DNA of 44,628 nucleotides from a virus, in the UHGV virus genome UHGV-0097092. The stretch is one strand, 5' to 3'. A program made the translations under genes and the position numbers. Position 1 is the stretch's first letter, and every line of letters starts with the position of its first letter. The notes under the pieces are model-generated. The model searched no databases and was not told the origin of the DNA. It was given only the letters and a program-made list of their open reading frames with translations. Positions 2,449-43,656 of this stretch are shown piece after piece.

Positions 2449-2455
2449 TTGGCCT

Positions 2456-2508
2456 TATCCGTTATCAAAATTGGAATATCCGTTATCACGAGCGTGATAT
2501 CCGTTATG
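2456..2508. promoter_or_regulatory. three direct ATCCGTTAT repeats at about 21-bp spacing plus palindrome TATCACGAGCGTGATA (2484-2499)
   Basis: repeats read directly; positioned just upstream of the minus-strand gene starting at 2448. Confidence 0.35.
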
Positions 2509-2527
2509 AAGTGGGGAATAAGACCAC

Positions 2528-2704: not shown

Positions 2705-2997
2705 TATGGTTGACTCCAGTTATCTTCAATAACAATACTTAACCTCTGAAGCCATTCTGCTAATTTCAGCATGGCTTCTCTTTCGCTTAAACCACGCGGA
2801 AAATCATCAAGCGAAATTGTTGGCTTGAAGTTCCCCGAATTATCCATTTCAACGGTCAGATTTTGCTCCAGCACGGTATTCCTTACGCGGCTATTGTGCC
2901 GAAGCAAATATACTGAGCGTGATTTATTGGTTTTGTGGTCGAGCTGATATTCGGTAAGTATCATCTGGCTTCCACCATGATTATTACCGCGCCACAT
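2704..2997 (-). CDS. hypothetical protein (97 aa)
   Basis: ORF with GGAG 7 nt upstream of the ATG at 2997; no recognised domain. Confidence 0.45.
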   Translation of the reverse strand: MWRGNNHGGSQMILTEYQLDHKTNKSRSVYLLRHNSRVRNTVLEQNLTVEMDNSGNFKPTISLDDFPRGLSEREAMLKLAEWLQRLSIVIEDNWSQP

Positions 2998-3009
2998 AAT
3001 TACTCCGTG

Positions 3010-3414
3010 TTAATAAGAGAAATAGACCGTTGCAACACTGTTATATTGGTCGAACGAAATAGCATTTACTTCATAGCTGGTGGGCAGCTTCTTACCAAGA
3101 ATGTAGCCAGGCCATGAGTTCCACGGAATTTCTGTTCGGTCGTCGTCTTGCCACATTACGCAACCAAGAGAGCCAACCATTTCACCATATCGCTTGCCAC
3201 AAGTAACAAAGCCGATATTCGGCTTTTCTTGTGTTACTGATACCGTGGTGGTATTGGCAGATGCATTGATTGCAGTACGTTGCTCATGCTCGCTGGCGGA
3301 TGAGGCGCTAATTACAGCGGTTGCCGCAGCTCCCGCAGCAATAACCGATGCATGAGATAAATGACAGGCAGATAACATTGCCAGAAAAATAATATTTCTT
3401 TGAAATTTAGCCAT
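3010..3414 (-). CDS. exported protein of unknown function
   Basis: 134 aa with signal peptide and Ala-rich region. Confidence 0.5.
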   Translation of the reverse strand: MAKFQRNIIFLAMLSACHLSHASVIAAGAAATAVISASSASEHEQRTAINASANTTTVSVTQEKPNIGFVTCGKRYGEMVGSLGCVMWQDDDRTEIPWNSWPGYILGKKLPTSYEVNAISFDQYNSVATVYFSY

Positions 3415-3688
3415 TGATATTTACCTTTATCGCGTAAACCTTTACCGGTTTATCGCCGAAGTGGGGATGCGTGATTGTCTTGATTTCATATCCGTCATAC
3501 GGGACGTCTATTCTGCGGCTGGAATCATCGCGCTTCGGATATCCCTTTGTGATAATCAGGCGGTCATACTCGCGGAACAGAATTCGCTTATTCCAGTAGT
3601 CATTACACAAGCGATACTCTTCCGTTTTCTCTCCAGACTTCATCTGGTCGAAATATTCACCGTTAACTGCCAGTTGAAGGTTAGCCAC
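3407..3688 (-). CDS. ASCH-domain protein (GTG start at 3688)
   Basis: GEKTEEYR matches the ASCH GxKTxExR signature; AGGAGG 6 nt upstream of GTG. Confidence 0.55.
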   Translation of the reverse strand: MANLQLAVNGEYFDQMKSGEKTEEYRLCNDYWNKRILFREYDRLIITKGYPKRDDSSRRIDVPYDGYEIKTITHPHFGDKPVKVYAIKVNING

Positions 3689-4508
3689 GGTTAACCTCCT
3701 GCGGCGGTTCTGGTAGCGGCATCCAGTGTGACGGTTTCCACGACGCCCCAGGAATGATCCACCCATCATTAGCGTCAGGATGCCCCGGGATGTAAGTCGC
3801 CCATTTCATTCGCCAGTCACCTTTCCTATCAAACTCCTTGGCAACAAGAACGGCTGTTTTGGTATCCGGCATTCGCTCACTACAGCTTATCCAACCATCC
3901 GGAGTTACCGGATAGTTGCGCATTGCGACCTTTAATGCCTCATAGAAGCAACCTTTCAGATTGTTGAACTGACGCCCATTAAGAGGACCGTGTTCAGTAA
4001 GCATGTTGCGTAATTTCCATGCCGCGTCGTTTACTTCGTTGGATGACAGGGGAGGCAACTTGTAAGTTTGGCTTACAGGTTCGGCACCATGAAGCATGGC
4101 GCCGCTCCGCTCTATGCCATCCAGCGCGATTCGCAGTGCCTGAATTGTGGTAGAGCTATCGTTTGGGGCTATTCCATATCGCTCGAATACAGCTAAATGG
4201 TTGCGCATAATCTCAGGCGTAAGCTCTTTGTAAGCATAAGCAAGAGGCTCTGATGCATTATCCGGCACAACCGACGCAGGCGCGGCAGCATAAACAGGAA
4301 TAACGTCCGCTTGCTCTTTATTGCTTTCATCCGTTAAAGCCCAGAATAATTTCCCGGCCGGATGTTTGAAAATATAAGCAACTGGATCTGCTTCCAGCGA
4401 TGCCAGTGCAATTTCATAAGCACGGCGCTCAATATTGTCTCGAACGTCCAAGCTGCCTATGCGCTCTTTGATTTCTTTAATCAGTTCTTTGTCGGTTAAA
4501 GTGGTCAT
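3681..4508 (-). CDS. DUF551-containing phage protein
   Basis: C-terminal W...SCSERMPD...WMPLPEPP pattern typical of DUF551. Confidence 0.6.
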   Translation of the reverse strand: MTTLTDKELIKEIKERIGSLDVRDNIERRAYEIALASLEADPVAYIFKHPAGKLFWALTDESNKEQADVIPVYAAAPASVVPDNASEPLAYAYKELTPEIMRNHLAVFERYGIAPNDSSTTIQALRIALDGIERSGAMLHGAEPVSQTYKLPPLSSNEVNDAAWKLRNMLTEHGPLNGRQFNNLKGCFYEALKVAMRNYPVTPDGWISCSERMPDTKTAVLVAKEFDRKGDWRMKWATYIPGHPDANDGWIIPGASWKPSHWMPLPEPPQEVNRG

Positions 4509-4714
4509 TTGTTAATCCTCAAAACTTTATGCCCGGGCGCAAAAGCACGCGTTTTGTCTTTGCTTATTCGCCAGCCATCCTTGCGCGCCTCTTTTGCACA
4601 GCCAGCCCATGACGTACCTATATACTCACCGAAGTCTGGCGACTTATATTTGCCATCTGTACACTGGAGGCAATCACAATAGAGATGCATGGTGTAACTT
4701 GCAGCGATAGCCAT
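4505..4714 (-). CDS. small Cys-rich hypothetical protein (69 aa)
   Basis: ATG at 4714 with AGGAG upstream; MAIAASYTMHLYCDCLQC... Confidence 0.45.
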   Translation of the reverse strand: MAIAASYTMHLYCDCLQCTDGKYKSPDFGEYIGTSWAGCAKEARKDGWRISKDKTRAFAPGHKVLRINK

Positions 4715-4715
4715 A

Positions 4716-4904
4716 TCACTCTCCTTTAGTGCGCAAGTGGTTTTTCCAGCGGTTTTGCGCCGCGCTGGGCTTTTTGCAAAAACCACAATCCATCATCCCG
4801 TAATATTTCATCAACCCCATCCGTCGGTTGCTGAGTCTCACCCACTGCCAGACGCCAGGAGCGTTTCTACGAACTAACAGAATCTTTGCTTTACGGTTTT
4901 TCAT
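4716..4904 (-). CDS. small basic protein (62 aa, begins MKNRKAK)
   Basis: ORF; start region duplicated about 175 bp upstream. Confidence 0.3.
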   Translation of the reverse strand: MKNRKAKILLVRRNAPGVWQWVRLSNRRMGLMKYYGMMDCGFCKKPSAAQNRWKNHLRTKGE

Positions 4905-5077
4905 CTTACAGCGTACCCTTTCTTCCGCCTGTTCTGTGACGCAGTAGGCTTACGCTTTGCGGCAAAAGCCACCTGACCAAATGGATGGAGTACCGCTATC
5001 TTATGGTTGCTAATAACCAGCTCCACCACACGCACAGGTCGCTGTAAAAAAAGTCGTTTTGCCTTACGGTTTTTCAT
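4901..5077 (-). CDS. small basic protein paralogue (58 aa, begins MKNRKAK), my own ORF call
   Basis: hand-translated; stop overlaps the next start as ATGA; shares the ttacggtttttcatc start region with 4716..4904. Confidence 0.3.
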   Translation of the reverse strand: MKNRKAKRLFLQRPVRVVELVISNHKIAVLHPFGQVAFAAKRKPTASQNRRKKGYAVR

Positions 5078-5249
5078 CGCTTTGCTCTCCTGCGTCTCTT
5101 TGCTGCTCGTCGTGCCGCTGCAATACCGGTATGGCGGCGCTTTGGTGCCGGGATGATGTTGTCAGCCATCAGGACATGTGGCTTTGCAATTAGCGCAGAA
5201 GCCCAAAAACGAGTCGGGTACGGTAACAAGCCGATACATGCCACACGCA

Positions 5250-5744
5250 CTACTCACCTCCGTTGATGCGAATGCCTGTTGCAATGCTGTTTATGATGCT
5301 GTCAGTGCATGGAGTAGAAAGCTGGGCATCTCCAGCAATTTTCATGACCTCAACATCTGCATATCGAATACCGAGGTGTATCAGACCTGCTATGCCTGAC
5401 TTAAGCCGAGCATTTTCCATAAATAGAACCTTTGCCATCTGTTTTTCTGCTTCAAGCTCAACGCGCAGCTTCCCTACCGTTAGCGCAATATCCTCGTTCT
5501 CCTGGTCGCGGAGTTTGATGTATTGCTGGTTTTTTTCCCGTTCATCCAGTAGTGCCAAAGCAACCTTTGGATTAAAGGCAGCAATAAATTCAGCGTTGTT
5601 TTTCAGAACGTGTTGCGCAATGGCCTGACTACTTAGTCGGACCTCATAACCACGTGCGCCACGGTGTGGTTTATATGAGTCCCAGTCTCCCCACGTTGCT
5701 TTCTCTGCCGCCTCACGCAGTGCCTGGTAATTAATTTCGCTCAC
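5250..5744 (-). CDS. Ead/Ea22-like protein
   Basis: N-terminus MSEINYQALREAAEKAT... typical of Ea22-like prophage proteins. Confidence 0.55.
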   Translation of the reverse strand: MSEINYQALREAAEKATWGDWDSYKPHRGARGYEVRLSSQAIAQHVLKNNAEFIAAFNPKVALALLDEREKNQQYIKLRDQENEDIALTVGKLRVELEAEKQMAKVLFMENARLKSGIAGLIHLGIRYADVEVMKIAGDAQLSTPCTDSIINSIATGIRINGGE

Positions 5745-6358
5745 TGGTTGCCTCCTTTGCGAAGCTGTTCAGCAATACTTACGCATATCTCTGCGCCTCT
5801 AATCAGCCCCGGAACGTTCTTGTTTGGCCCAACTTCACCATCAACAAAATCAATCATCGCGTTACGAGCCATATCCACCCCCTGCGCCCGCACTTCCGCC
5901 AGGAAAGCGTCGGTAGCTGGCGTTTCGCTGTGGTGCAGGGCATCATTAATAATCATCGCAGCAACTCCGGCCTGCCCTGCATCCGTTACCGACACATGCT
6001 CAAGAGTTACGGCCATTGCGTGTTTCAGTCCGGCGTTCTCTGCCACCAGCGCCGCGATATTAGTTTCAAGCTCTGCAATACGGCACATAGCATCAATATT
6101 TGAGTCCTCCTGACGTTTAATTTCATCCAGTAGTGACAACGCAACTTTTGGTGGGATAGCCGCGATATAACGGGCATTAGCACCAGCATTCCTTTGTCCA
6201 TCAATGCCAGGCCAGTCAATAAAGTATCCGCAATGCCTACCTTCAGACGTGCGCGCAGGATAAATGCCGTTATGACCCGGCAAAATATATGCTACCCATT
6301 CATCTTGCGTTGCCTGTTCCGCCGCCTCGCGCAGTTCTTGATAGTTAATTTTGCTCAC
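5741..6358 (-). CDS. Ead/Ea22-like protein
   Basis: N-terminus MSKINYQELREAAEQAT; C-terminal module [17 protein letters not shown]...QLRKGGNQ shared with the gene at 8934..9650. Confidence 0.6.
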   Translation of the reverse strand: MSKINYQELREAAEQATQDEWVAYILPGHNGIYPARTSEGRHCGYFIDWPGIDGQRNAGANARYIAAIPPKVALSLLDEIKRQEDSNIDAMCRIAELETNIAALVAENAGLKHAMAVTLEHVSVTDAGQAGVAAMIINDALHHSETPATDAFLAEVRAQGVDMARNAMIDFVDGEVGPNKNVPGLIRGAEICVSIAEQLRKGGNQ

Positions 6359-6644
6359 TGGTTGCCTCCGCTTCCCACGTTTTCAGACTTTCACCACAGA
6401 ATGGGCAAAATGAAACTCGAATAGGCGATTTAGAAAATTCACCAGACCGCAGCATGATCAGGTCCTGTGAATGAATTAATTCATGGTTATAGACTTTGTA
6501 TTTCAGCAGGCCTTTTCGCGTCGTGTATTCAGCATCCTGCTCCAGAGATTGTGCCAGCGCCGCGCACGGTTCTATTTTTCTGCCATTAATCAAACAAGTG
6601 GAGATTCTGCACTTTGCAGCTCCGTCACCGTTACCTTGACTCAT
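6345..6644 (-). CDS. small zinc-ribbon-like protein
   Basis: 99 aa with CxxxC ... CPFCG motifs. Confidence 0.45.
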   Translation of the reverse strand: MSQGNGDGAAKCRISTCLINGRKIEPCAALAQSLEQDAEYTTRKGLLKYKVYNHELIHSQDLIMLRSGEFSKSPIRVSFCPFCGESLKTWEAEATSEQN

Positions 6645-6657
6645 TGCGTTGTTCCCA

Positions 6658-7653
6658 TCAGTTATTAAACGTGATCACTCCGCGCTCGATGGCGAAGTCG
6701 AAAAGCTGGTTAGCGACTACATAAAGGCGTATGCCATGTGCTTTTTCCCATGCCCGGACATCGTGTTCTGCGCTTCTGGCGCAGTCATCGCAAAGAGGAA
6801 CAGCCCAGCGGTCGTGTTCGTTTAACGAGCGGGCGCGGTACATGAACGGGTGGTTAACTTTGCCACCGCATCCGATGCACGGACGAGAAACCACAAAGCG
6901 GAGATAAGCCGGGCTTTTTCCGAGTAAGGTTTTTGGACGGCGCATATATAGGAGGCCAGAATCCTCATCTACAGACAGGTTGACGATCTGCTCTGCGGTT
7001 ATGTCCACCAGCTCGCGCGTACTGCGCTCCCAGGTGATATCTGATTCTTTCAGCGTACCGGTAGGGATTTCAGTTTTTGGCTGACAAAATGCAATGCGCC
7101 CGGCTTCATCTGGCAGCTCATCTTTCAGATTCCGGCGAATGGCCCAAAAAGTGAGTTCAACCATGCTCAGATCGCGTTCTGGCGGTAGTTTTAACTCGCT
7201 CGCAGCCCAGTTCATAACCCAGTTGGCGCGATTCAGGGATAACTGGTCGTCCAGCTTGCTGTACCCCTTCATCATGTATTCCGCATCATGCTTCCAGCAC
7301 AGGCGAACGGCAGAACCGTTATAGAAGTGAGTGGTTAGCTGGTGGCTACAATCGCGCTTATCATGCGCCTGGCAATCGTGAATGTTGGTGCTAACCCAGT
7401 GAACGATAGAATCCTCGCCACCTAACGCATTAAATACGCGCTCACTTTGAAAAAAGGGTGTCAGTGACTGGTTGGCAACCAGGGAATAATTCAGATCCAC
7501 GACGCCATCAGGGGTGTTTTCAGCCTGTTCGCGCGGCAATGGGGAGATAAGAAAACGGCGGCCTGCGCCGATGTAATTGCTGGTGGGCTTATCTACAGGA
7601 AAGACAGCCACACCAGTTTCATTTACGACATATGGGGTGATTATTGCACTCAT
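6658..7653 (-). CDS. DUF968-family protein with Cys-rich C-terminal region
   Basis: 331 aa; C-terminal RPCIGCGG...PLCDDCARSAEHD resembles the DUF968 HNH-like region. Confidence 0.55.
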   Translation of the reverse strand: MSAIITPYVVNETGVAVFPVDKPTSNYIGAGRRFLISPLPREQAENTPDGVVDLNYSLVANQSLTPFFQSERVFNALGGEDSIVHWVSTNIHDCQAHDKRDCSHQLTTHFYNGSAVRLCWKHDAEYMMKGYSKLDDQLSLNRANWVMNWAASELKLPPERDLSMVELTFWAIRRNLKDELPDEAGRIAFCQPKTEIPTGTLKESDITWERSTRELVDITAEQIVNLSVDEDSGLLYMRRPKTLLGKSPAYLRFVVSRPCIGCGGKVNHPFMYRARSLNEHDRWAVPLCDDCARSAEHDVRAWEKAHGIRLYVVANQLFDFAIERGVITFNN

Positions 7654-7694
7654 AATGCATACCGACTCTGTTTTGTTCCGAGCGGTAAAATAAT

Positions 7695-7727
7695 ATGTTA
7701 GAAAATTAAAATCAACAATCTAACACG
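7695..7727. promoter_or_regulatory. promoter-operator-like palindromic motif, copy A
   Basis: ATGTTAGAAAATTAAAATCAACAATCTAACACG; TTAGA/TCTAA arms around an AT-rich, -10-like core. Confidence 0.45.
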
Positions 7728-7757
7728 ATTTTGAGCGCGTAAACGATGTAACCCGGC

Positions 7758-8441
7758 TTACGGTTGCCCTCCCTTCACCTGCATTAGCGTCAGGTTTCCG
7801 CAAAATACAGCACCAGTATCGATATAATGCTGGTTCCAGAATGCTTTTGGGCTTTTAGCCGGGGTGTGTCCGAAGATAAATCGATCTGCACCTGTAATTT
7901 CTTCACCGATGCCATCTATCGAATCACTAACACGGTCGCGCGACCAGATGACATTGAAAAGCGGCACAGCCTTACCGAACTGATACTCTCTATCCGGATA
8001 GTCAGCATGAGCAATGACAATAGTCTCCTGCCCGGTGTTCAGCTCAATGATATGAGGCAATTGCCTTACCAGCTCCACCAGCGCCCTGGCTAAAACTTCC
8101 TTATCACTATCCAGCATAAAGAACCACTGGCCGCCATTCATTAGCCAGTTATTCACGTTTCCAGCTGGGCTTAACGCATCGATCATCAACCTCTCATGGT
8201 TACCCATGACAGCCCGGAACCAGGGCATTTGCAATAACTCCAGGCATTCGACATTTTCAGTGCCGCGATCGATAAGGTCGCCGACTGATATCAGTAAATC
8301 CTGCGCCGGGTCAAAATCCACACGATGGAGTTCATTCATAAGCAGGGTGTAGCAACCGTGCAAATCACCAACAACCCATATGTTTCTGTATCCTGAACCA
8401 TCAATACGGCTATATAACGCCTGGTCGTTAACGGTGATCAT
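7758..8441 (-). CDS. Ser/Thr protein phosphatase, lambda PPase / PrpA-PrpB type
   Basis: metallophosphatase motifs GDLHGC, GDLIDRG, GNHE. Confidence 0.8.
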
Positions 8442-8665
8442 TCTGCAACATCCTCCAAATCAGCAACCGCGTCCATCACATCAGAACCGCGAATAACTTC
8501 AAAAGCGCGGCAGGCCATTTCAAACACCTGTTGTTCTTGCGGATGCGGTGACTCCCAATACTTAAAACCAGGTCGATGCTCGTAACCCATCATGGAATAA
8601 AAATCGCCAGCAAGTTCAATCGCGGCATCAACAAGTTCGCGATTTGTCATCGTCTGTTCTGTCAT
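8438..8665 (-). CDS. hypothetical protein (75 aa)
   Basis: ORF translationally coupled to neighbours; acidic. Confidence 0.45.
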
Positions 8666-8937
8666 TTGGTTTTCTCCTGTCTGAACATCACTATCATCAG
8701 GTCGCCTTTTGTCGCTATCCTCGCTGTTGTGCCTGGTTCAATGCGGCTAAGTTCAAATGCGTCATAGAACGCCTCCAACGCTTTCTGGCGTTTTTCCTGT
8801 TTGCGGCGCTTTCCCCACTGCTTTAGAAAAACAGAGGCCGCCCACTTCCCCGCACTGAACATGATGTAAAACCAACCGAGAAGTGCCAGACCGGTATTTA
8901 GGAGCGTATCGATCGTTATTGTCGTGTCGATATTCAC
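8662..8937 (-). CDS. small membrane protein
   Basis: 91 aa with a hydrophobic helix (LLGWFYIMFSAG) followed by a basic stretch. Confidence 0.45.
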   Translation of the reverse strand: MNIDTTITIDTLLNTGLALLGWFYIMFSAGKWAASVFLKQWGKRRKQEKRQKALEAFYDAFELSRIEPGTTARIATKGDLMIVMFRQEKTK

Positions 8938-9650
8938 TGGTTGCCTCCTTTGCGAAGCTGGTCGGCGAACAAACGTACACCAGACGCTTCACTGCGTAGA
9001 AACTTAACGGCATAATCAAAACCACCTCGTTCTGCGTCGTCTGCTGCGTTGTCGAGGTTATCTGCGTACATCTCTACCCCCTGCGCACGCACTTCAGCCA
9101 GGAAAGCGTCGGTGGCTGGGGTTTCAACACGGATGCTGTCGCGCAAGATGAAAAATGCATTGAGCATTCCTGTCTCTGGCACTTCATCCTGATGCTTCTC
9201 ATACGCATCAAGAGCCTTCATCATCTCAGCTCCGAATGGTTGAGGGTGCACAGACTTCAGCTCCGCATTCTCCGCCGCCAGCACCACGCGTTCGCTCTCC
9301 AGTTCTGCAATGCGCTGTTTTGCGGCATCAAGTTCAATCGATAATTTTTCCAACTGCTCTTTATGCTTCTTGTATTCCTGATATGCGTGCCAAGACTGAC
9401 CTTTGCGCACACTATCCGTGATATCAGTAATCTGTTCTGGTGTTAGCGTGGTCAGTGGCTGTGCTGGGAAAATCAGCACTTTGCCGGAATCCCAATCAAA
9501 ACCAGCGTGAATTGACTGAACCTCAACTGATGGTGTTGAACCGATGCGACCAGGCGAATGAACAACGATCGTTACATCCATATCGCGACGATGGCTGTGG
9601 TTGTTGGACAAAATACGATTCACCAACTCAGAAAATTTGGAAAATTTCAT
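8934..9650 (-). CDS. Ead/Ea22-like protein (start taken at ATG 9650)
   Basis: shares the C-terminal module and the 3' junction sequence cactggttgcctcctttgcgaagctg with 5741..6358; ATGA overlap with the upstream gene. Confidence 0.55.
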
Positions 9651-10009
9651 GCTGATTCCCTTTGCTCTTCCTGGATAATGTTGTTGCAATCTTTCACGCA
9701 CTCGTTGCAGATGAAGACGTTGTCCCCGGCAATTAACTTTTTAACGGTGTGCTGGGATTTGTTGCAGAAGCTGCAATAAAGCGTTGGACTGGTTGATACG
9801 GATGGTGCGCCAGATGTCAGCCGCGCGATGTCGTTCTTGCGACGCAATATCACACGGCTGAACTCAACCAGCTTCTCCGGGGATATATCCTCCTCCGTAG
9901 CGAGCGTTTCTAATCGTTCGAGTATGTGGAAGGCTTTTTCCTGGGTAATCCTGGGTAATTCAGCGTTACGCTCTGCCAGTTGTGCGGGCGTTAAACCTTC
10001 AGACTTCAT
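9647..10009 (-). CDS. protein with C-terminal ClpX-type C4 zinc-finger domain
   Basis: [39 protein letters not shown] closely parallels the ClpX N-terminal zinc-binding domain. Confidence 0.6.
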
Positions 10010-10316
10010 GCACTCTCCTTTCGAAATAAACGTACTGATTAATCATGCCCAGGGGCATTTCGAGTTTTTCCGCGATCTCACGGCGGGGAACGCCGCATTG
10101 ATGAAGTTGCCGCGCCAGCTCTATATCGCTCTGCCGATATTTGGCTGACTGGTGAAAGTCACCTTTCAGAATCATTCTGATCCCCAGTTCCCGCGCTTTA
10201 GTCCTGACAGCATCTCCGGTACGCCCGATCAGCCTCCCAATACTCTCGACCGTCATAGTTCCGGCGCACTGGCGGAGTATCATGATTTCTGCCCTTCCCC
10301 ATCCCCGCCAGCTCAC
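9999..10316 (-). CDS. small DNA-binding (helix-turn-helix-like) protein
   Basis: 105 aa; HTH-like segment [26 protein letters not shown]. Confidence 0.45.
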
Positions 10317-10936
10317 GCCGACATCCTCTGAGACATAAACTCCACAAAACGAACTGCATCTTCAGAAACAACGCCGCATGACTTCAGATAATTCATTGCG
10401 TCATTAGGTAGCGGATTAGTTGGTTCGGCATTTGCCAGGGATTGAGATAAACGCGTGATTAATTTGACCATTCTCCGCTGTCGGAGGTTGTATCCTTCGG
10501 CTAAAGACAGGTAACTGGAAAGGGTATTGCTTAGGCGAGCGCGAAGCTGATCCGTGCCGTGACATTCAATAGCAACATCACGTAACGCATCGACCAGTTC
10601 GCGGTAAATATGCGCTGCCATTCTGCAATCTGTGTCAGATGGCGCTTCATAAATTACCGTCAGCTCCAGTTTTTCAGCCAGGGCGTGTTCTGCTCGTGCT
10701 CCTGCGGACGCTTCCCAGCCCTTAAGCAGATAGATAGCATCAGCAGAACGCACCATTGCCAGGCAAATATCCATGTATTCACTCTGACAAAGGCCACCAG
10801 GTAACACCGCTGGATTCAGAACGATATGCCCTTCAGCCGTCAGCTCACTCGCCTTCGCATTAAACGCCGCGCGGTTGTAATCTGGATAACCAGTCATCGG
10901 ACCCGCGATGTAAATTTTCAAAACACGTTTCACCAT
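10313..10936 (-). CDS. DUF4406 / nucleoside 2-deoxyribosyltransferase-like protein
   Basis: start MVKRVLKIYIAGPMTGYPDYN; IAGPMTG motif typical of the NDT-like fold; extra C-terminal region. Confidence 0.5.
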   Translation of the reverse strand: MVKRVLKIYIAGPMTGYPDYNRAAFNAKASELTAEGHIVLNPAVLPGGLCQSEYMDICLAMVRSADAIYLLKGWEASAGARAEHALAEKLELTVIYEAPSDTDCRMAAHIYRELVDALRDVAIECHGTDQLRARLSNTLSSYLSLAEGYNLRQRRMVKLITRLSQSLANAEPTNPLPNDAMNYLKSCGVVSEDAVRFVEFMSQRMSA

Positions 10937-11091
10937 CAAAATTTCCCCAGCATCGTGACGCAAAACATAAGCACTGCAAAAAGCTCAATACCAAGCTCAA
11001 GTAGCGCCAACGCGCCGAAAAACAGCACATAAAACAGGCCGATCTCATTCACAGGTGGCTGGTGGATCGCACTTAAGGCTATAAGCATCAT
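10936..11091 (-). CDS. small hydrophobic membrane protein (51 aa), first gene of the leftward array; my own ORF call
   Basis: GGAGG upstream; MMLIALSAIHQPPVNEIGLFYVLFFGALALLELGIELFAVLMFCVTMLGKF; stop overlaps next start as TGATG. Confidence 0.35.
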   Translation of the reverse strand: MMLIALSAIHQPPVNEIGLFYVLFFGALALLELGIELFAVLMFCVTMLGKF

Positions 11092-11130
11092 GTCCTCCAA
11101 ACAGTAAACAGCGACTGATATTAATGTTTT

Positions 11131-11163
11131 ATGTTAGAAAATCAATTTTGAATATCTAACAAA
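11131..11163. promoter_or_regulatory. promoter-operator-like palindromic motif, copy B (divergent region)
   Basis: ATGTTAGAAAATCAATTTTGAATATCTAACAAA between the leftward array and the ref-like gene. Confidence 0.45.
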
Positions 11164-11209
11164 TATGATCAATCATAAAAAAATCGCTGATAAGTAAGAG
11201 GCAGCCAAC

Positions 11210-11788
11210 ATGCAGAGACAGAGTTATTGGGAGAAACAGAGACAAAAAGCCATGCAAAAACTGGCTGATCCGGAATGGCGGGAAGAGCAAAGGGCAAAAC
11301 GTCTTCAGCAGGCTCAACGCCAGCAGCAACGCGCAAGGGAAAAAGCCGCATCGCCTGAATATCGTCAAAAGAAACTTGAAAAAGTGAGGCAAAGTGAACA
11401 GCGCAGAAGAGAGAGGGCGGCGTCAGCCCTCCCCAAAAAAACGCGCCCGTCACGCGGATTAAAAGGGAGATCACTCACAGCAGAAGAGCGCCGGATACAG
11501 GACGCTATAGGCAAACTCCCCTGTATTGCCTGCCATCTTCACGGGAAGCATAGCCCTGTCGTATCTCTCCACCACATATTTGGCAGAACGGCTAAAGATG
11601 CCCATAAATACGTTCTCCCTTTGTGTAAATGGCACCACCAGCACGCAGCGCCAGCAGAGATCCGCGAACAATATCCCTGGTTGGTTCCTGTTCATGCTGA
11701 TGGAAAAATAGGCGGGAAAGCAGATTTTATACGGCACAATGCCGAAGAGATGACGCTCTATCAGACGGTGCAAGAAATGGTGAATTAA
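11210..11788 (+). CDS. ref: Ref-like HNH-type recombination enhancement protein
   Basis: basic Gln/Arg-rich N-terminal region plus C-terminal Cys/His core (LPCIACHLHG...LPLCKWHH), matching the P1 Ref architecture. Confidence 0.55.
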   Translation: MQRQSYWEKQRQKAMQKLADPEWREEQRAKRLQQAQRQQQRAREKAASPEYRQKKLEKVRQSEQRRRERAASALPKKTRPSRGLKGRSLTAEERRIQDAIGKLPCIACHLHGKHSPVVSLHHIFGRTAKDAHKYVLPLCKWHHQHAAPAEIREQYPWLVPVHADGKIGGKADFIRHNAEEMTLYQTVQEMVN

Positions 11789-11812
11789 TTTTCTAACATT
11801 TTATGTTGAGTT
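11789..11812. promoter_or_regulatory. degenerate reverse copy of the operator-like motif, copy C
   Basis: TTTTCTAACATTTTATGTTGAG immediately after the ref-like stop. Confidence 0.3.
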
Positions 11813-11916
11813 TGAAATTTACTGATTGTACATTTTGATTAGATTGGTTCACCGCTCGACGCAACGAGACAAATCCTCAAGGATTTCGTATGATTGCCAA
11901 TGTCATAGTTATGGCA

Positions 11917-11975
11917 GCGCAATACAGGTGGCTAAAAGCCCCCGTTGACTCACGGTGTTCCAACCTGTATTGCGC
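11917..11975. repeat. perfect 13-bp inverted repeat GCGCAATACAGGT / ACCTGTATTGCGC with a 33-nt spacer
   Basis: read directly; embedded in a possible 35-aa ORF (11891 onward). Confidence 0.5.
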
Positions 11976-12119
11976 CGCCACCAGACCGTGGAACAGTCTG
12001 TGACGGCTTCGAAAGCAAGGAGTCACTATGAACAATTACAAACTTTTCCCATCACTCACCGTCTACTCACGCAATAACCTGCGTTCTTTGCTCCCATCAA
12101 AACTGGAGGGAGTATCAAA

Positions 12120-12287
12120 ATGACCGTTCGCTACCTGAATTATCAAATCCAGAACATCACTGGCGGTTGCTATGACTGGTTTGTCACTCTCGGAAAAGAA
12201 GTGATTACAGGGAAACTGGATGAAGTGAAAGCTAAGGCGTTGGCTTATGCCTGTAAACAATCCATGAAAATGAAAAGAAAAAAATAA
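12120..12287 (+). CDS. small hypothetical protein (55 aa), my own ORF call
   Basis: GGAGGG 7 nt upstream of ATG; MTVRYLNYQIQNITGGCYDWFVTLGKEVITGKLDEVKAKALAYACKQSMKMKRKK. Confidence 0.35.
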   Translation: MTVRYLNYQIQNITGGCYDWFVTLGKEVITGKLDEVKAKALAYACKQSMKMKRKK

Positions 12288-12344
12288 CAATGGGAACAAT
12301 CCGCCCCACTCCGCTATAAGGTGGGGCGGCATAATTAATACTGG

Positions 12345-12737
12345 TTAAAACTCACCTGCACGCTGTTTTTCAAGCACAGATTTAACATTTGGCGCTTTAC
12401 CCTCAAAAGAATGGAAAGTGCCACATTTTTCTGTCTTCACCTCGCGCAGAGCTTCGCCATCGGCATTCTGCCATTGATGGGATAATGTCATATCACCGCG
12501 AGAAGGAACATCAAGCGAGTACAGCGTATAAGTGCCTCCCATCTCTGCATATTCCTGGAACACATAACTCATTACGTCAGATTCAGTTTTACGATGTGCG
12601 TTATCGACCTTATTCCCGTTCAGAAATATAGCGTTTGGATAGATTTTTATATCAAACTGACCGCATTTCACTTGCAGATTCCCAGCGTCTGCCAGCAAAG
12701 GAAAAGCAGCCAATAAAGCAATAGCCAATCTTTTCAA
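12345..12737 (-). CDS. exported protein of unknown function
   Basis: 130 aa with signal peptide MKRLAIALLAAFPLLADA. Confidence 0.5.
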   Translation of the reverse strand: MKRLAIALLAAFPLLADAGNLQVKCGQFDIKIYPNAIFLNGNKVDNAHRKTESDVMSYVFQEYAEMGGTYTLYSLDVPSRGDMTLSHQWQNADGEALREVKTEKCGTFHSFEGKAPNVKSVLEKQRAGEF

Positions 12738-22745: not shown

Positions 22746-22760
22746 GTGGCGAAATACCTA

Positions 22761-24422
22761 TTAACCTAACTTCGCCCAGGTATCACGCAGCCCAACGGTG
22801 CGGTTAAATACCGGTTTTTCCGCCGTAGAATGGCGGCTGTCGAGGCAGAAATAACCTTCACGCTCAAACTGGAATGCTTTACCCGCTACCGCTTCTTTCA
22901 GCGACGGTTCAGCAAAGCCTTGTTTGATCACCAGCGATTCCGGGTTAATCACCGACAGGAAATCATCCGCAGCACCAGGGTTCGGCACGCTGAACAGACG
23001 GTCGTACAGACGGATTTCAACCGGCAGCGCATGTGCCGCGCTCACCCAGTGAATAACACCTTTGACTTTACGACCATCTGCCGGATCTTTGCTTAAGGTG
23101 TCGGCGTCATAAGTACAGAAGATGGTGGTGATATTGCCTTCGGCATCTTTCTCCACGCGTTCAGCCTTAATGACGTAAGCATTACGCAGACGCACTTCTT
23201 TACCCAGCACCAGACGTTTGTACTGCTTGTTAGCTTCTTCTCGGAAATCGGCGCGGTCGATCCAAATCTCACCGCTAAACGGCACCTGACGGCTACCCAT
23301 TTCCGGTTTGTTTGGATGGTTCGGCATGGTGACCATTTCGCCTTCGCCCTGGTAGTTTTCGATAACCAGTTTCACCGGATCGATAACCGCCATTGCGCGC
23401 GGCGCATTTTCGTTGAGATCTTCACGGATGCAGGATTCCAGCGACGCCATCTCAATGGTGTTGTCCTGCTTGGTCACGCCGATGCGTTTGCAGAACTCAC
23501 GAATAGAAGCCGCAGTGTAACCACGACGACGCAGACCGGAAATGGTCGGCATACGCGGGTCATCCCAGCCTTCAACGTGCTTGTCGGTCACCAGCAGGTT
23601 CAGCTTACGCTTGGACATCACAGTGTATTCCAGATTCAGGCGCGAGAATTCGTACTGGCGCGGGTGAACAGGAATGGTGATGTTGTCCAGCACCCAGTCG
23701 TACAGGCGACGGTTGTCCTGGAACTCAAGCGTACACAGAGAGTGCGTAATACCTTCCAGCGCATCGCTGATGCAGTGGGTGAAGTCGTACATCGGGTAGA
23801 TGCACCACTTGTTGCCAGTCTGGTGGTGTTCAGCAAATTTAATACGGTACAGCACCGGATCGCGCATCACGATAAACGGTGAAGCCATGTCGATTTTCGC
23901 ACGCAGGCAGGCTTTACCTTCTTCAAAACCACCGGCACGCATTTTTTCGAACAGCGCCAGGTTCTCTTCAACGCTGCGGTCGCGGTACGGGCTGTTTTTA
24001 CCCGGTTGCGTCAGGGTGCCGCGGTATTCGCGGATCTGTTCCGGCGTCAGTTCATCAACGTACGCCAGGCCTTTATTGATCAGTTCGATCGCATAGGCGT
24101 GGAGCTGATCAAAATAATCGGAGGAGTAACGGACGTTACCAGACCAGTGAAAACCTAACCACTCTACGTCGTTTTTGATCGACTCAACATACTCGATATC
24201 TTCTTTTACCGGGTTAGTGTCGTCGAAACGCAGGTTGCACTGGCCTTTATAGTCCTGGGCGATCCCGAAGTTCAGGCAGATAGATTTCGCATGGCCAATA
24301 TGCAGATAGCCATTTGGTTCCGGCGGGAAACGGGTATGTACTGTGGTGTGCTTACCACTGGCCAGATCTTCATCGATGATCTGACGAATGAAGTTAGTCG
24401 GGCGGGCTTCTGCCTCACTCAT
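22761..24422 (-). CDS. glnS: glutaminyl-tRNA synthetase, near-identical to E. coli GlnRS as recalled
   Basis: 553 aa; N-terminus [52 protein letters not shown] and VMSKR class I motifs. Confidence 0.95.
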
Positions 24423-24690
24423 TGTGGATTCCTCAAAGCGTAAACAACGTATAACAGCGTATGATCTTATAAGCCGAATAGGCTGACAACCACTAGTTGA
24501 TTAGAAATTGCTTTCTATCGTTATTTCAATAATGAGCTTTTTCATGAAGCCCACTTTTGCGCATAAGTAAATTAATGACAAATGGTGCACAATTGGCACC
24601 AAAAAGGATGTAAAAGTGCACCAAATTAGTGGTATATTGGTGCACCTTTGGTTCAAAACTTTTTAAGTTCTAAAACCAACCTGAAAGACT

Positions 24691-24978
24691 TTATTTTGCT
24701 TCCTCAGACTCCGCTAACATGAGGATAGCATGGCGGATCATATTCAATTTGCTGCGATTATGCTTTTTGCTTAACGCATCAAGTACCTGGTACTCGTATT
24801 CATTGAAGCCAACACGAATGGATTTAAAATCACGTGGGGCGTCCTTATCGAGCACTTTGTTGTCTTCTGGTTGCTCACCCGGCACCAAATCAGCTTTGCT
24901 GGCAAAAGCCTCAATTCGGCGTTCAAGATCGAGGTCTTTTACTTCGGGGGCTTTTACCGATTTACGAGGCTTAATCAC
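24691..24978 (-). CDS. ParG-like ribbon-helix-helix centromere-binding protein
   Basis: 95 aa; C-terminal RHH-like KSIRVGFNEYEYQVLDALSKKHNRSKLNMIRHAILML; downstream of and overlapping the ParA-like gene. Confidence 0.5.
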   Translation of the reverse strand: MIKPRKSVKAPEVKDLDLERRIEAFASKADLVPGEQPEDNKVLDKDAPRDFKSIRVGFNEYEYQVLDALSKKHNRSKLNMIRHAILMLAESEEAK

Positions 24979-25612
24979 TTAATAACTCCTTAACCAACAT
25001 CTGGATTTCACCTTTAGCTTTCCCGTTGTCCATCTCAACAACGCCCTTCCCTTCAGCCATACAATCGCGGTAAACCTTGCGATCGCGAATGATGGTTTTC
25101 AGCAACTTCAGTTGCGGATATTCAGCCAGGTACTCTTTGGCCTCATTGGCTTCATTCACAACCGGATTGGATGGGGCCATTGTTAAGACTGCGCACGCCT
25201 TAATGCTAGGATTAGGCATCAGATCCAAAGCCTCTTCAAAGACTTCAACAAAATGCGCCAGAGTGTCTAAATCTGGCTGAGATGGCCTGAATGGAACAAG
25301 CAAAACATCCGCCGCAGTAATACCGGTGCGCATTTCTTTGCTATCACGACCAGCGGTATCAACAACCACAAATTCATAACGCTTGTCCAGATCAAGAAGT
25401 GTTTCACGAATATTCCCAAACTTCTGGACGCAATGAATTACTGGAGAAACCTCTGCCGCATTACGGTCCGATGCCCAACGGGCAGATGTTCCTTGCTTAT
25501 CTGCATCAAGTAGAACTACGTCCTTATTTGCGCGGGCAAGCTCCGCACAAATATTTACGCTGGTGGTTGATTTGCCACAGCCACCTTTTTGGCTGGCTAC
25601 CAATATAATCAT
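24971..25612 (-). CDS. parA: small ParA/ParF-type Walker ATPase (type Ib partition)
   Basis: start MIILVASQKGGCGKSTT (deviant Walker A); about 213 aa; GAGG upstream. Confidence 0.8.
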   Translation of the reverse strand: MIILVASQKGGCGKSTTSVNICAELARANKDVVLLDADKQGTSARWASDRNAAEVSPVIHCVQKFGNIRETLLDLDKRYEFVVVDTAGRDSKEMRTGITAADVLLVPFRPSQPDLDTLAHFVEVFEEALDLMPNPSIKACAVLTMAPSNPVVNEANEAKEYLAEYPQLKLLKTIIRDRKVYRDCMAEGKGVVEMDNGKAKGEIQMLVKELLSD

Positions 25613-25645
25613 ATCCGTTCCTCGGTGTGATTTTGGTATCAAAAC

Positions 25646-25830
25646 GGTTCCAGATAAGAGCCTTTTTGATGCGGGACAGGCTCTATAATGGAGTCATGAA
25701 TGTTTGGCAAAGTATAACATCAATCAGACCAAATACACCTTATATTGCATCCTATTTAACACGAAATCAGCCCCAAATTGGAACCAGATACAAAATTGCA
25801 CCACAACAGCACCTAACTGGTTCCAGATTA
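25646..25830. repeat. three GG(T/A)(T/A)CCAGAT repeats in the region upstream of the ParA-like gene; candidate centromere/operator
   Basis: GGTTCCAGATAAG (25646), GGAACCAGATACA (25780), GGTTCCAGATTAA (25820). Confidence 0.35.
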
Positions 25831-25855
25831 ACACCAATTAGACACCATTAATGCA

Positions 25856-25880
25856 TAAAAAAGGCTGCAATTTGCAGCCT
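25856..25880 (-). terminator. rho-independent terminator downstream of parR (minus strand)
   Basis: stem ggctgca/tgcagcc, then T-run on the minus strand. Confidence 0.5.
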
Positions 25881-25899
25881 TAAACCAGCACATCTTCTG

Positions 25900-26244
25900 T
25901 CAATCAGGTAGAGAGTCAGCCAGATTGCGCGCCGACGCGCTTTTGGCAACAACTTGCTCCTTCACTGGCTCAATGGAGGCAGGGCGCTCCTCAACCGCAG
26001 CTGGTAGTTCCAGGAAGGATGCCAGCATTTTTCGGATCAGCTCCGGGTTATTGTCTTCGGTCAGCAGGGAAGCCAGTAATCCTGGAAGCCTGCTATCGAC
26101 TTCTCCCAGCGCAAGCCCTGCCAACAATGCGGTTCTTGCCATATCGCTATGTTTTTTTATCTTCTCGCTAGCCGCCTTTTCATTGGCATAAGCCTCTGGG
26201 CGAAGATAAATCATCACTTTCTTACGTTCCTGAGACATGGACAT
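25900..26244 (-). CDS. parR: ParR/StbB-like partition adaptor
   Basis: KVMIYLRPEA...RTALLAGLAL...PGLLASLL aligns with recalled R1 ParR. Confidence 0.6.
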   Translation of the reverse strand: MSMSQERKKVMIYLRPEAYANEKAASEKIKKHSDMARTALLAGLALGEVDSRLPGLLASLLTEDNNPELIRKMLASFLELPAAVEERPASIEPVKEQVVAKSASARNLADSLPD

Positions 26245-26251
26245 TACCTCG

Positions 26252-27191
26252 TTAACCGATTGCTTTCAGGCCATGAACAAGAGCAAGTTGCGGGTCATCC
26301 GCCACGAAGAAACGGTCATCACGAATATTAACTTGCTCGCGAATTGCATCTGCCACCAGCGGTGCGCCACCACCGATCACCATGACATGCGTATATCCTT
26401 TAAAGAACGCGGGTACGCAGACGGTCAATGCTTGCGGCAATGGCCTTTTTCACATCACCAACCGCTGATGGGTCATTGATATTGTCGTTCAGATAATCTT
26501 CATCGTGGCGGTTAATAATGAGCTGATCGACATTGTAATTTGACGTTTCGGTATTGGCTCTGGCAAGTGCTTGCCTTACTTCCCTGGTAACCAGAGAGAC
26601 GCCAAGATTCGAATCGCCAAAAACACGGGAAACTGCCGTCATTTGCCCGGCGACCATTGAAACATCAAGGGTAGTTCCACCCAAATCGACGATAAGAACA
26701 GAATGGGCAGGGTTCAGATTGTCGCACAGGCCAATTCCTGCCGGAATAGACTCCGGGCGTACCGTAACTTTCTTAATCGTGAACACATTGCCTTTATTCA
26801 GCGTGACGGGGCGCATAAGGCTGGCTTTCTTGCGCTCGATGTTATCGAGATTGTATTGCGCGTCGTCGTCGTAAAACTCCGCCAGAGGCAGCGTGACCAC
26901 AATTTCTACTTCCTGCGGCTCAATGCCACTTGTCAGCAGGGCATGGTGAACAGCCAGGACGTTAAGCGGGCTGTATTGCCATTCCACGTTATTCGTCGGC
27001 AGAACATCTGGCGAGATCAAATCATACGAATACTTTTCGTCGTCAATGACATAGTTAAACGGCTTGCCCGCACCAAATGTTGCTGACCATCCGCGCTTAA
27101 AGCTGTTAGGGCTGATGTGAGTGCGAGTTTCCCCGTCGTGCTCCCACAGCATTTTGATATTGGTTGAACCATCATCGATAAAAATGCGCAT
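26252..27191 (-). pseudogene. parM: ParM/StbA-like actin-type partition ATPase, interrupted by a frameshift near 26400-26420
   Basis: N-terminal 263 aa (MRIFIDDGSTNIK...DRLRTRVL) stops at 26400; the conserved C-terminus (GYTHVMVIGGGAPLVADAIREQ...) continues in another frame (26252..26440). Confidence 0.6.
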
Positions 27192-27216
27192 CTTCTTGCT
27201 CCACTTCTGAGACACA

Positions 27217-27372
27217 TTTGAGAATCAAAATGCAATTTTAAAAGAGAAGCAACCAAAAATCCACACCAAAAGAGATAAAAAAGAGTGATTATTGAGTTCA
27301 TTTTGAGAATATCTTAATCACCAAATGAATGATGGTCTGACAGTGAGATTTGTTTGAGAATGAATTGAGAAT
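27217..27372. repeat. parC-like array of TTGAGAAT repeats upstream of parM
   Basis: copies at 27217, 27302, 27353 and 27365, plus degenerate copies (27292, 27411). Confidence 0.5.
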
Positions 27373-27457
27373 ACAAAAATATTCCGAAATTTAACTCTCA
27401 GTTTGAATGACGAAATAACAAAGTGATGACAATAGGAGGATAACCAGGAGATGAAGA

Positions 27458-27742
27458 ATGAGCGCAATAGCCACCAGCGACACCCTTTGTTCTGGTCACG
27501 GAGGATTTCCGCCGCGACTGGTAGCTGAAACCGTTCCCTGGTTCACCGTTAACGGTAAGCCAGTTGTTGTAGATGGTGCCATGTTTCCCAGTCACACTGA
27601 CGGTAACAGTGCACATCCAGGGGCAGCTGTATCGACGCGAGTATGGTTTTCGATAGGTGGAAAGGGAGTTGTCTGTGTAGGCGATCCGCTTTCTTGTGGT
27701 TCTGTTATCGCCAACGGCGAGGATATTTTTCAGGTTGCATAA
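27458..27742 (+). CDS. PAAR-like spike-tip protein (T4 gp5.4-like)
   Basis: 94 aa; CSGHGG...NGKPVVVDG...VCVGDPLSCGSVIANG pattern. Confidence 0.6.
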   Translation: MSAIATSDTLCSGHGGFPPRLVAETVPWFTVNGKPVVVDGAMFPSHTDGNSAHPGAAVSTRVWFSIGGKGVVCVGDPLSCGSVIANGEDIFQVA

Positions 27743-28548
27743 TGCTTGATTCAATAGGTGAAGTTAAAGCCTTCAAAATTCTGTCAGATGCCGGTATCTC
27801 TACACCAGAATCTATAACCATAAGCCGGGCAGCTTCTGTAAAAGCCTCATCGCTCGCCAGCGCCATACAGGGAATAGTTCACGCCGATAAAACCTATCCT
27901 GATTCTGTTTCGGCCTGGACTACTCAATTGCTTGGCTTTTCTGAACAGCTCAATGAGGCCAGCAAAGCGTCTTCATCACTGGCTGATTCTCTTTCCCCAT
28001 ACACCAAGCCATCAGAGCTGTTACAGATGAAGATTGGCTGGGAATGCTACGCAAAAGGTAACGAGCTGACCCCCATACCTGCTTTCGCCCTTGTTGAGGG
28101 AATGGGGAATGTTTCCATTCCGCAATCTCTAACGGACGCATTGACGGCGCTAAAACTTGATGCTCTGAAAACCGCCATGAACGCCATTAACGCAAAAATT
28201 GAAGCTGCCGGAAGTGCTGGTGGTGGTGAAAGCAATGGTGGACAGGGTGGTGCTGGGGGCGCTCAGGCTCCAGTCATTACTCAGGATGAAATTGATGCTT
28301 TACGGGAAGCAGTGACAGCCGCCGAAGTTTTACTCTCCGAAATTAACTCAGCAAGTGAGGGTGTCGTAGCCCTTACAGGTCGCATTAAAACGTCAACCAC
28401 TCAGGCAACCAAAGGTTTAGAGAACGCTGTCGCCATCACGTTAACTGGTTCTCTACTGGATGATGCAGTAATGAGTCCGGCAATCAGTTTAATCATGCCA
28501 CAAGGCGTTATCGATGCGCTCCAAAAGAACACCAAAAAGGAACCATAG
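27742..28548 (+). CDS. hypothetical protein with Gly-rich linker, translationally coupled to the PAAR-like gene
   Basis: 268 aa starting MLDSIGEV; TAATG overlap; central GSAGGGESNGGQGGAGGAQ linker. Confidence 0.45.
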   Translation: MLDSIGEVKAFKILSDAGISTPESITISRAASVKASSLASAIQGIVHADKTYPDSVSAWTTQLLGFSEQLNEASKASSSLADSLSPYTKPSELLQMKIGWECYAKGNELTPIPAFALVEGMGNVSIPQSLTDALTALKLDALKTAMNAINAKIEAAGSAGGGESNGGQGGAGGAQAPVITQDEIDALREAVTAAEVLLSEINSASEGVVALTGRIKTSTTQATKGLENAVAITLTGSLLDDAVMSPAISLIMPQGVIDALQKNTKKEP

Positions 28549-42700: not shown

Positions 42701-43656
42701 TATCCAGCTTAACCGGTAAATCTTTTGGATTTAAAAAAGCTTCTCAAGTGGCTGATATCGCAACAGCCATACAACAAAAACGCACTGTTAATCACGATAC
42801 AGAAATCATTGATCTACTTCCGGGAGATCAAGTATCCCCTTCTACTCCGAAAACTCCACAGCAGGAGCAGGCTCTGGCAATCAACCAGGCTATGGCGGGC
42901 TTTTCGTCTGCAGCGCCAGCACCGAAAACCCCACAGCAGGAGCAGGCTCTGGCAATCAACCAGGCTATGGCGGGAGCTGCGCCAGTAGTTACCTCTGGAA
43001 AACGAACTATCACGGCACCAAGTGATGTGCAGATTTATGACAACGGCTACAAGGTGGTTACAGGTGAGGATAAGAGCTTCTTTGGTTCGCTATTTGATTC
43101 CACGGTGTCAGGGCTTAAACAGACAGGAACCGCAGTAATTCCTGCCGTTGGCGATAACCTTTCACGACTTGTTGGGGGGATTGATAGTACAGGGATATTG
43201 AACGATCTTGTAATGCAGTCTACTGGGCAGAATAGTGCGATTGCGCGAGCTATTAGCCCATTAACAAGAAATGTTGGAGACTGGTTGAATGGGGGGATTC
43301 AACAAACCGCTAATAGCATTAGGGGAATAGCAACTGGTGCCAATAACGCCATATTTGGCTCTGCTTCAGCTGTGCAAGAACCTTTTCTTGCTATGCCGCC
43401 ACAACTCCCTACTGTAACCGATCTCGCACGAAGCGGAATAAGACAACCATTAACTACTGACACTATAAATAACGATCCTGCTATGTTGAAGGCGCTGGAT
43501 AACATCTGCTCTATCCTGAACGATCTGCTGAATGTGAACAAGAACAATACAAAAGGCGATCCGGATAATGTTGTCAAAACATCGCAGCCGCAGCCGCGAC
43601 CACGTGCGAGCACAACTATTAATGACCAGTCGCTGGATGCTCTGCTTGAGGATTAA
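39712..43656 (+). CDS. putative tape-measure / structural injection protein (P1 Sit-like); start uncertain (TTG 39844 has the better RBS)
   Basis: 1314 aa; Lys/Ala-rich low-complexity regions, internal tandem repeat, Gly-rich segments; sits next to baseplate genes. Confidence 0.45.
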   Translation: MDISPLATLNNYRNGEHSICQKPWKKNTKLKPGNVDRAGKREVILKENKDRIAIIDAIQGASTNELKALAEIKNAILSDRGSITQLGENQGKVSQRLSRRRIASEPYVSGDAKNTQANPYIKRLPMKKGRTQVNNGEERLIVATNTSERVHFASSRQSAQKLKGSVPVAANSAPLEPQSPQSQKGPLRDSNGRFVSQKNNEDIARKKEWQNARKADAKLQEGFLRKLGSIIGVDGNQSSSEESLTDAAGVGAGGPLWMAARGMYDITKEITGKAESLKEWVEKGKGEALSSKATSPAITYPAVVNTQKATSATAFNNAVETKSAQAVEEQTKILQTNDNKIIDGLENVSDEVVKLRKSVSSGNKFGLSDLWRNRASRRNKINIGEQAGKNKRNKPKRKGRNLGKKALSVGEKAAAGTAAAGAGAGAAKTVKTKVSKAKDISTTSDASKGIAKETKNTAKAVKPAGVVAEEATIKTGETVAKKKTESVALKSAAKIGVKSAASTAARAIPIIGSLAMAGYDAIDGYTDTDAQKAAFGLSDDDAVSEQQKTAYATANVLDMGGLVSGATNLIGKGISALGFERAGEKLQNFDTGDIARGVNGAVDITKSVFGNLKDTFLSTDENTKQVKKAVEDGTKKTVDAIHSLGEQLQGGRNGEDGVGEHGYTSPTEFSAPANNTIAADLNIGGSNAKNRNYRNNNLGNLVFANQEGATLESPNAKGEQRFARFNTPEEGIRALANQVSSYYNGTSAAAGYQKLQTVSSIISKWAPPNENNTNQYIDNVSKYLGVSPNEKIDVSKPEVMTQLVRAIATKEGGNPAVNNEFIKNALGAFNTNTGRWEGQFSDETLARINKIQKENGGQLIARDSQYSVGRKVKYANGKSPAQPVLNAVPTATQQPIEVAQHAQAVKKPQKTGNQPQPINPENADVNTGSPSSLLERLITINESGISGASNLFGGAATSLAGTSLDLVKDFALATSFGSISSLSEKAKGMDQALTEKISSLTGKSFGFKKASQVADIATAIQQKRTVNHDTEIIDLLPGDQVSPSTPKTPQQEQALAINQAMAGFSSAAPAPKTPQQEQALAINQAMAGAAPVVTSGKRTITAPSDVQIYDNGYKVVTGEDKSFFGSLFDSTVSGLKQTGTAVIPAVGDNLSRLVGGIDSTGILNDLVMQSTGQNSAIARAISPLTRNVGDWLNGGIQQTANSIRGIATGANNAIFGSASAVQEPFLAMPPQLPTVTDLARSGIRQPLTTDTINNDPAMLKALDNICSILNDLLNVNKNNTKGDPDNVVKTSQPQPRPRASTTINDQSLDALLED
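42847..42974. repeat. two tandem copies of a 75-bp unit (25 aa, PKTPQQEQALAINQAMAG...) inside the Sit-like gene
   Basis: near-identical units starting 42847 and 42922. Confidence 0.6.

Follow-up and report, generated by a model that had tools for sequence, protein, structure and literature searches.

A 17-bp deletion divides the parM/stbA gene on a D6-like phage-plasmid contig and probably makes it a pseudogene

The window analysed here, a 44,628-nt stretch of viral DNA (UHGV-0097092), contains a ParM-like partition gene whose coding text passes from one reading frame into another. This raises the question of whether the locus holds one gene broken by mutation, two genes, a gene read by recoding, or an assembly error. 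ENA lists the window as metagenome contig ERZ1745005 NODE_439, from a SPAdes assembly, and its k-mer coverage is 4.05. It encodes capsid, tail, and baseplate proteins, RepB, glnS, and two maintenance modules, and the same gene set occurs in phage D6 and in about 100 plasmids of E. coli, Salmonella, and Shigella. By BLAST, window positions 12342-42974 are 99.5% identical to NZ_CP069886.1 over 30.6 kb. We take the window to be a D6-like phage-plasmid of E. coli.

Two other parts of the contig differ from its closest relative. Positions 1-12340 are mosaic with respect to the closest plasmid, with blocks of ~90% identity and unmatched stretches between them, which suggests recombinational exchange in an early/accessory gene region. 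In NZ_CP069886.1, a large gene annotated as a transglycosylase repeats a 75-bp (25-aa) unit in tandem 7.7 times (L004:44664-45241), and the window has ~1.7 copies at 42847-42974, which is six fewer and leaves the gene 450 bp shorter, in frame. TRF detected no tandem array in the window counterpart of this repeat. The shortfall could be either copy-number variation or short-read collapse.

The disrupted gene is made up of the following parts:
26400 to 27191, minus strand: N-terminal fragment of parM/stbA (from the ORF list, Pfam, and identity to the reference prefix)
26252 to 26401, minus strand, +1 frame: C-terminal remnant of parM (from Pfam and identity to the intact protein)
26403 to 26405, minus strand: deletion junction, the retained CTT (AAG on the plus strand) of a 3-bp direct repeat

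The N-terminal fragment begins at an ATG at 27191, preceded by GGAG, and stops at a premature TAA at 26402-26400. Its 263 aa end in ...DRLRTRVL and are 100% identical to residues 1-263 of the 318-aa protein WP_001557707.1. The coding text goes on in the +1 frame as KGYTHVMVIGGGAPLVADAIREQV...KAIG, with (F)FKGYTHVMVIGGGA... at its beginning. The C-terminal remnant itself, KGYTHVMVIGGGAPLV...KAIG, is 49 aa long and ends at the normal stop at 26254-26252. It is 100% identical to residues 270-318 of WP_001557707.1 and contains the GGGA adenosine motif. Of this remnant, gene callers report just the last 43 aa, from an ATG at 26383.

Pfam places StbA_N (PF06406) on residues 1-153 of the 263-aa fragment (E=1e-69). 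The ParM C-terminal domain (PF21523, 159 positions) is divided: the first fragment covers positions 2-104 and the second covers 113-158, whereas positions 2-158 lie in a single ORF in an intact relative. Therefore, this is not a chance pattern of ORFs. A contiguous, one-frame C-terminal domain with GGGA is absent from the window parM, where GGGA (residue 279) lies beyond the premature stop. The other actin-fold motifs of the intact protein are DDGSTN (residue 6) and DLGGTT (residue 169). The intact allele aligns with R1 ParM from residues 1-318 to 4A62_A 1-319 (E=1.9e-111), but the window allele does so only in two pieces. Judged by these matches, the locus is one ParM/StbA gene split by a frameshift. 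A sequence-only reading of the window had already placed a frameshift in a ParM-like gene at 26377-26445, and this was borne out, with the gene on the minus strand and its first part ending in RTRVL and TAA.

We aligned the locus at the nucleotide level with three intact homologues, from NZ_CP069886.1, phage D6 (MF356679), and NZ_CP066033.1. The window lacks exactly 17 nt, CTTGATGTGATTGGCGA on the coding strand, as a single gap with identical flanks. Intact genes read GTT CTT GAT GTG ATT GGC GAC TTT AAA GGA, whereas the window reads GTT CTT TAA AGG A; as longer strings, the intact form is GTTCTTGATGTGATTGGCGACTTTAAAGG and the window junction is GTTCTTTAAAGG. BLAST against the closest relative likewise put the 17-nt gap at window position 26403. 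A CTT direct repeat flanks the missing block, with one copy kept in the window, GTT[CTTGATGTGATTGGCGA]CTTTAAAGG, and the breakpoint is ambiguous within 26403-26405. At 3 bp, a repeat of this kind could arise by chance. The window lacks residues 264-269 (DVIGDF), six codons of which 17 of the 18 nt are gone; R1 ParM has NTLNEF at this position.

The sequence-only reading had estimated the deletion at roughly 17 bp and named nucleotide alignment to intact ParM/StbA homologues as the check. That check gave one gap with identical flanks, and the size is exactly 17 bp against every intact homologue examined. Some of its details need correction. It counted 4 nt between RTRVL and the resumed homology, but homology picks up again at K270 (AAA, 26401-26399), 1 nt after the L263 codon. 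The segments that it put about 7 codons apart are separated by six codons, DVIGDF, minus one base. The string that it quoted from the other frame, FFKGYTHV, is indeed C-terminal text, except that its first two F residues are an out-of-frame reading of GTTCTTT that overlaps the RTRVL codons.

A deletion between two CTT trinucleotides 17 bp apart would account for the junction, and replication slippage or microhomology-mediated joining would be its most likely origin. Such a deletion would shift the frame and place TAA immediately 3' of codon 263. The surroundings suggest that the event was recent. Across positions 24600-27800 the window and NZ_CP069886.1 differ by 3 SNPs in all, none of them in parM or stbB. 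Measured against the closest known relative, therefore, the lesion appears very recent.

WP_001557707.1 and the window gene have identical residues 1-263 and 270-318 within 30.6 kb of surroundings that are 99.5% identical, and the NZ_CP069886.1 locus has a PAAR gene upstream and stbB, a parA-like gene, and glnS downstream, as in the window. The window gene differs by the 17 bp (codons 264-269 less one base) and by its stop after codon 263. Phage D6 encodes StbA (ASR76352.1, MF356679 orf58) and StbB (orf59) at the same locus in the same gene order, with 95.7% nucleotide identity across a 1061-bp query. However, its gene is an intact 957-nt one, and its sequence at the deletion site matches that of the other intact relatives.

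We then asked how the two alleles are distributed. Megablast with the 1061-bp locus as the query matched 226 records, of which 123 were from plasmids, 2 from phage D6, and 101 from complete E. coli genomes, and all 101 of the E. coli genome matches were located on plasmids. Among the matches listed, the relatives' matched span was 1077-1078 bp, versus 1061 bp in the window. The top identity among the 226 records was 98.4%, and the shortfall of the closest relative came entirely from the 17-nt gap. In the three relatives inspected, parM is a 957-nt CDS. Public contigs with the intact allele number at least 1000, and hundreds of others have different intact 318-aa alleles. The 263-aa product was found on 5 contigs, 2 of which have the deletion: the window, which is listed in 2 samples, and one listed as a similar place. 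The latter has the 263-aa product as well as the 43-aa one and may not be independent of the window. The remaining contigs with the 263-aa product are probably coincidental, each happening to end in that codon. The deleted allele was not found in PLSDB, phage records, or complete E. coli genomes. The junction sequence was not found in IMG/VR or JGI metagenomes, where an intact 40-mer occurred 10 and 5 times, respectively; nor was it found in GTDB representatives, from which the intact 40-mer was also absent.

The 263-aa look-up also returned two ENA metagenome contigs, L006 (3780-3790) and L007 (1198-1207), that end at ...CGCGTTCTTG, where the deleted segment has its left edge. Their ends read ...GTTCTTG and so include one base of the 17-bp segment. 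A mixed-allele bubble does not explain them, because a G/T bubble would stop at CTT and not CTTG. A repeat or mobile-element boundary was also rejected, because ~k bases of the repeat would be present. A control look-up with the 43-aa product gave contigs L015 and L016, which begin exactly at the ATG of the 43-aa ORF. An exact-product look-up picks such ends, and at least 1000 contigs have the allele. Therefore, chance together with selection by the look-up is probably an adequate explanation for the ends of L006 and L007.

We consider it probable that the window records a real, recent 17-bp deletion that pseudogenised parM. The main competing explanation is an artefact: amplification could have produced a chimera or a jump at the CTT microhomology, or the assembly path could have been drawn from one or two reads, with the deletion absent from the bulk of the sampled DNA. 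At a k-mer coverage of 4.05, the junction of this metagenome contig is possibly on very few reads. The allele is absent from the other collections and the independent isolate genomes searched, in which the intact sequence is common, and the possible collapse of the 75-bp array (1.7 copies versus 7.7) means that the contig may contain errors. However, losing 17 bp at a 3-bp repeat is atypical of short-read error, and de Bruijn repeat collapse needs repeats of k-mer length, whereas CTT is 3 bp. The contig is also listed in 2 samples and one similar place, although these may not be independent. Finally, the 30.6-kb alignment to the 99.5% identical relative has no other gene-disrupting indel. Besides the 17-bp gap, its indels are a +1/-1 pair at 12688-12691, whose members compensate each other, and two 1-nt indels, at 36052 and 36074, both of which are intergenic by the NZ_CP069886.1 annotation. 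Therefore, the assembly is not generally indel-prone, and we think an artefact unlikely, if still deserving of some weight. For pseudogenes in low-coverage metagenome contigs such as this one, read-level confirmation is needed before interpretation.

If the deletion is real, the main product would be a 263-aa ParM without its last 55 residues. The actin/Hsp70/ParM fold has two phosphate motifs (1 and 2) and an adenosine motif. The truncated protein would lose a beta-strand and the GGGA adenosine loop (HVMVIGGGA), as well as the C-terminal 40 residues and the elements there by which the actin fold is closed. The lost part aligns to GYTHVMVIGGGA... of R1 ParM (full-length homology, E=2e-111). 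Truncated ParM should fail at nucleotide binding or proper polymerisation. Because the GGGA adenosine motif is lost, the gene is most likely dead, and parM on the window contig is most likely a non-functional pseudogene as judged from its sequence. Our verdict is an ordinary gene-killing deletion, or a low-coverage artefact, in a known gene of a known phage-plasmid family. For annotation, parM here should be recorded as a pseudogene arising by a 17-bp deletion frameshift, not as two genes and not as recoding.

The case for recoding comes from the junction. It reads CUU-UAA-A (26405-26399, minus strand), in which a prfB-type shifty codon and an in-frame stop are both present, and the shift needed to regain the C-terminal frame is +1 (equivalent to -2), not -1. 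The efficient prfB site consists of an SD-like AGGGGG, a UAU or UCU spacer codon, a CUU shifty codon, and a weak UGA-C stop (PMC13245932). The core of that "shifty stop" is CUU and then U plus a stop (PMC13245932), and the window shares both this core and the need for a +1 shift with prfB (RF2). In the proposed step, P-site tRNA-Leu(GAG) on CUU would re-pair with UUU while the stop is in the A site, and reading would continue with AAA GGA. From the junction CGC GUU CUU UAA AGG, a +1 shift gives exactly the C-terminal 49 residues. Thus, +1 frameshifting might keep the gene partly functional as a 312-aa ParM minus DVIGDF.

Several findings argue against this. No SD-like AGGGGG was found upstream of the window junction, where the text reads GACCGTCTGCGTACCCGCGTT. 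The window site differs from that of prfB in having no SD-like stimulator (upstream text GACCGUCUGCGUACCCGCGUU), in its spacer codon (GUU, not UAU or UCU), in its stop context (UAA-A versus UGA-C), and in being unconserved. Without an SD, a shifty stop would yield at most a few percent. A ParM lacking the six residues just before the adenosine-motif strand may also not fold. The junction is conserved in no relative, which indicates that it is not programmed. We searched the zero frame before the premature stop for an X XXY YYZ heptamer, of the kind that a programmed -1 shift would use, and found none. The sequence-only reading had likewise seen no classical slippery heptamer, but the +1 direction of the shift and the prfB-like stop had escaped it. 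We rejected programmed frameshifting on three grounds: the site is unconserved, it has no slippery heptamer, and it lacks the prfB stimulators. Furthermore, the site occurs in no relative searched, against at least 1000 contigs with the intact allele, so programmed, selected recoding is ruled out. The earlier preference for a deletion or pseudogene over programmed frameshifting is therefore supported by the 17-bp gap and by the absence of the site from relatives.

The prfB-like junction is a by-product of the deletion. That unprogrammed +1 frameshifting at CUU-UAA-A keeps the gene partly functional seems to us extremely unlikely. It is very unlikely that a prfB-like stop arising by chance, with low-level +1 shifting, would supply a 312-aa ParM active enough for plasmid inheritance. 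If it did, a natural frameshift mutation would be "leaky" through the very sequence that it created. The least probable alternative of all is split-gene complementation, in which the 263-aa product and the 43-aa peptide would join non-covalently into a working ParM: gene callers do call the 43-aa ORF, and its ATG at 26383, 16 nt past the stop, makes termination-reinitiation conceivable, but the AAGGA 12 nt upstream is a long SD spacing for a product that is itself putative, residues 264-275 are missing entirely, and a split ParM is conserved in no relative.

Returning to parM as a probable pseudogene, we examined the modules around it. The neighbouring features are as follows:
25900 to 26238, minus strand: stbB/parR-like adaptor gene, 112 aa, intact (Pfam Plasmid_stab_B, PF10784, E=3.5e-11)
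27208 to 27377, no strand: putative parC centromere/promoter with direct-repeat families D1 and D2, intact
24971 to 25612, minus strand: small ParA-type ATPase gene of a second partition system, 213 aa, intact (Pfam CbiA/ParA/AAA_31)
24691 to 24978, minus strand: 95-aa ORF overlapping the parA-like gene, equivalent to D6 orf61 (from the ORF list; same gene in relatives)
about 22750 to 24420, minus strand: glnS, placed from glnS of NZ_CP069886.1 (L004:24559-26220)

The stbB gene has its own GAGG ribosome-binding site just 3' of the parM stop and no differences from NZ_CP069886.1. In relatives it is annotated as StbB or as a plasmid partitioning/stability protein. Between parM and the divergent PAAR gene, 27208-27377 contains repeated units of the TGAGA(N6)TTGAGAAT type, some of them 11 bp apart. 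By analogy with R1 parC, this region is likely to be a parC-type centromere/promoter and is a candidate target of StbB. With an adaptor gene directly downstream of parM and a repeat-bearing region upstream, the locus has the type II ParMRC layout, and in these respects it resembles parC-parM-parR of R1. The intact relative also aligns end to end with R1 ParM (PDB 1MWM/1MWK and 4A62; type II ParMRC), with DDGSTN, DLGGTT, and GGGA present. However, the window gene is a phage-plasmid-borne orthologue with an StbB-family adaptor (PF10784), and its ATPase is truncated before GGGA.

The ParA-type gene is annotated in relatives as an AAA family ATPase, and its D6 counterpart, orf60, as having a "possible ParA partitioning function". 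The 95-aa ORF is, from its position, a possible centromere-binding partner. A full-length glutaminyl-tRNA synthetase gene (glnS) lies beside the partition modules, as it does in phage D6 (orf62).

ParA-type (ParAB) and StbAB systems coexist in Shigella pINV, where both are functional (PMC6519299), and the D6-like pYU39_89 has been described with parA, stbB, and parM (PMC6799933). The intact stbB, the second, ParA-type system, and a toxin-antitoxin module in relatives may let the element tolerate the loss of parM. By analogy with pINV, it is plausible that the second partition system buffers this loss. If the deletion is real, the window would be one case of a D6-like phage-plasmid that has lost its actin-type partition ATPase while retaining the ParA-type one, and it would fit the idea of redundant maintenance modules.

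Other, independent lesions of the same parM appeared in the look-up of public assemblies with the 43-aa product. One is an IS2 insertion (L011:1-160; GCA_002228995.1, NLMT01000167.1), in which the right end of IS2 (...GGGGCAAATCCA) abuts AAAGGATATACG, 1 nt off the breakpoint range of the window. This IS2/parM junction is in no PLSDB plasmid record. We considered IS2 insertion as the origin of the window deletion, but in silico removal of the element gives GTTCTTGAAAGG and not the observed GTTCTTTAAAGG. Therefore, we treated the IS2 insertion as a separate event. Three further assemblies have lesions equivalent to window positions 26385-26410: a 10-N scaffold gap (L013), a 1-nt deletion (L014), and a G-to-T nonsense change (L017). 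Homopolymer losses of 1 nt occur further upstream in parM in another three (L009, L010, and L012). Counting that of the window, 5 of the 8 informative disruptions, a small number, fall within ~25 nt of the palindrome CTTTAAAG. This clustering could reflect a hotspot at this place, errors at low coverage, or coincidence among few cases.
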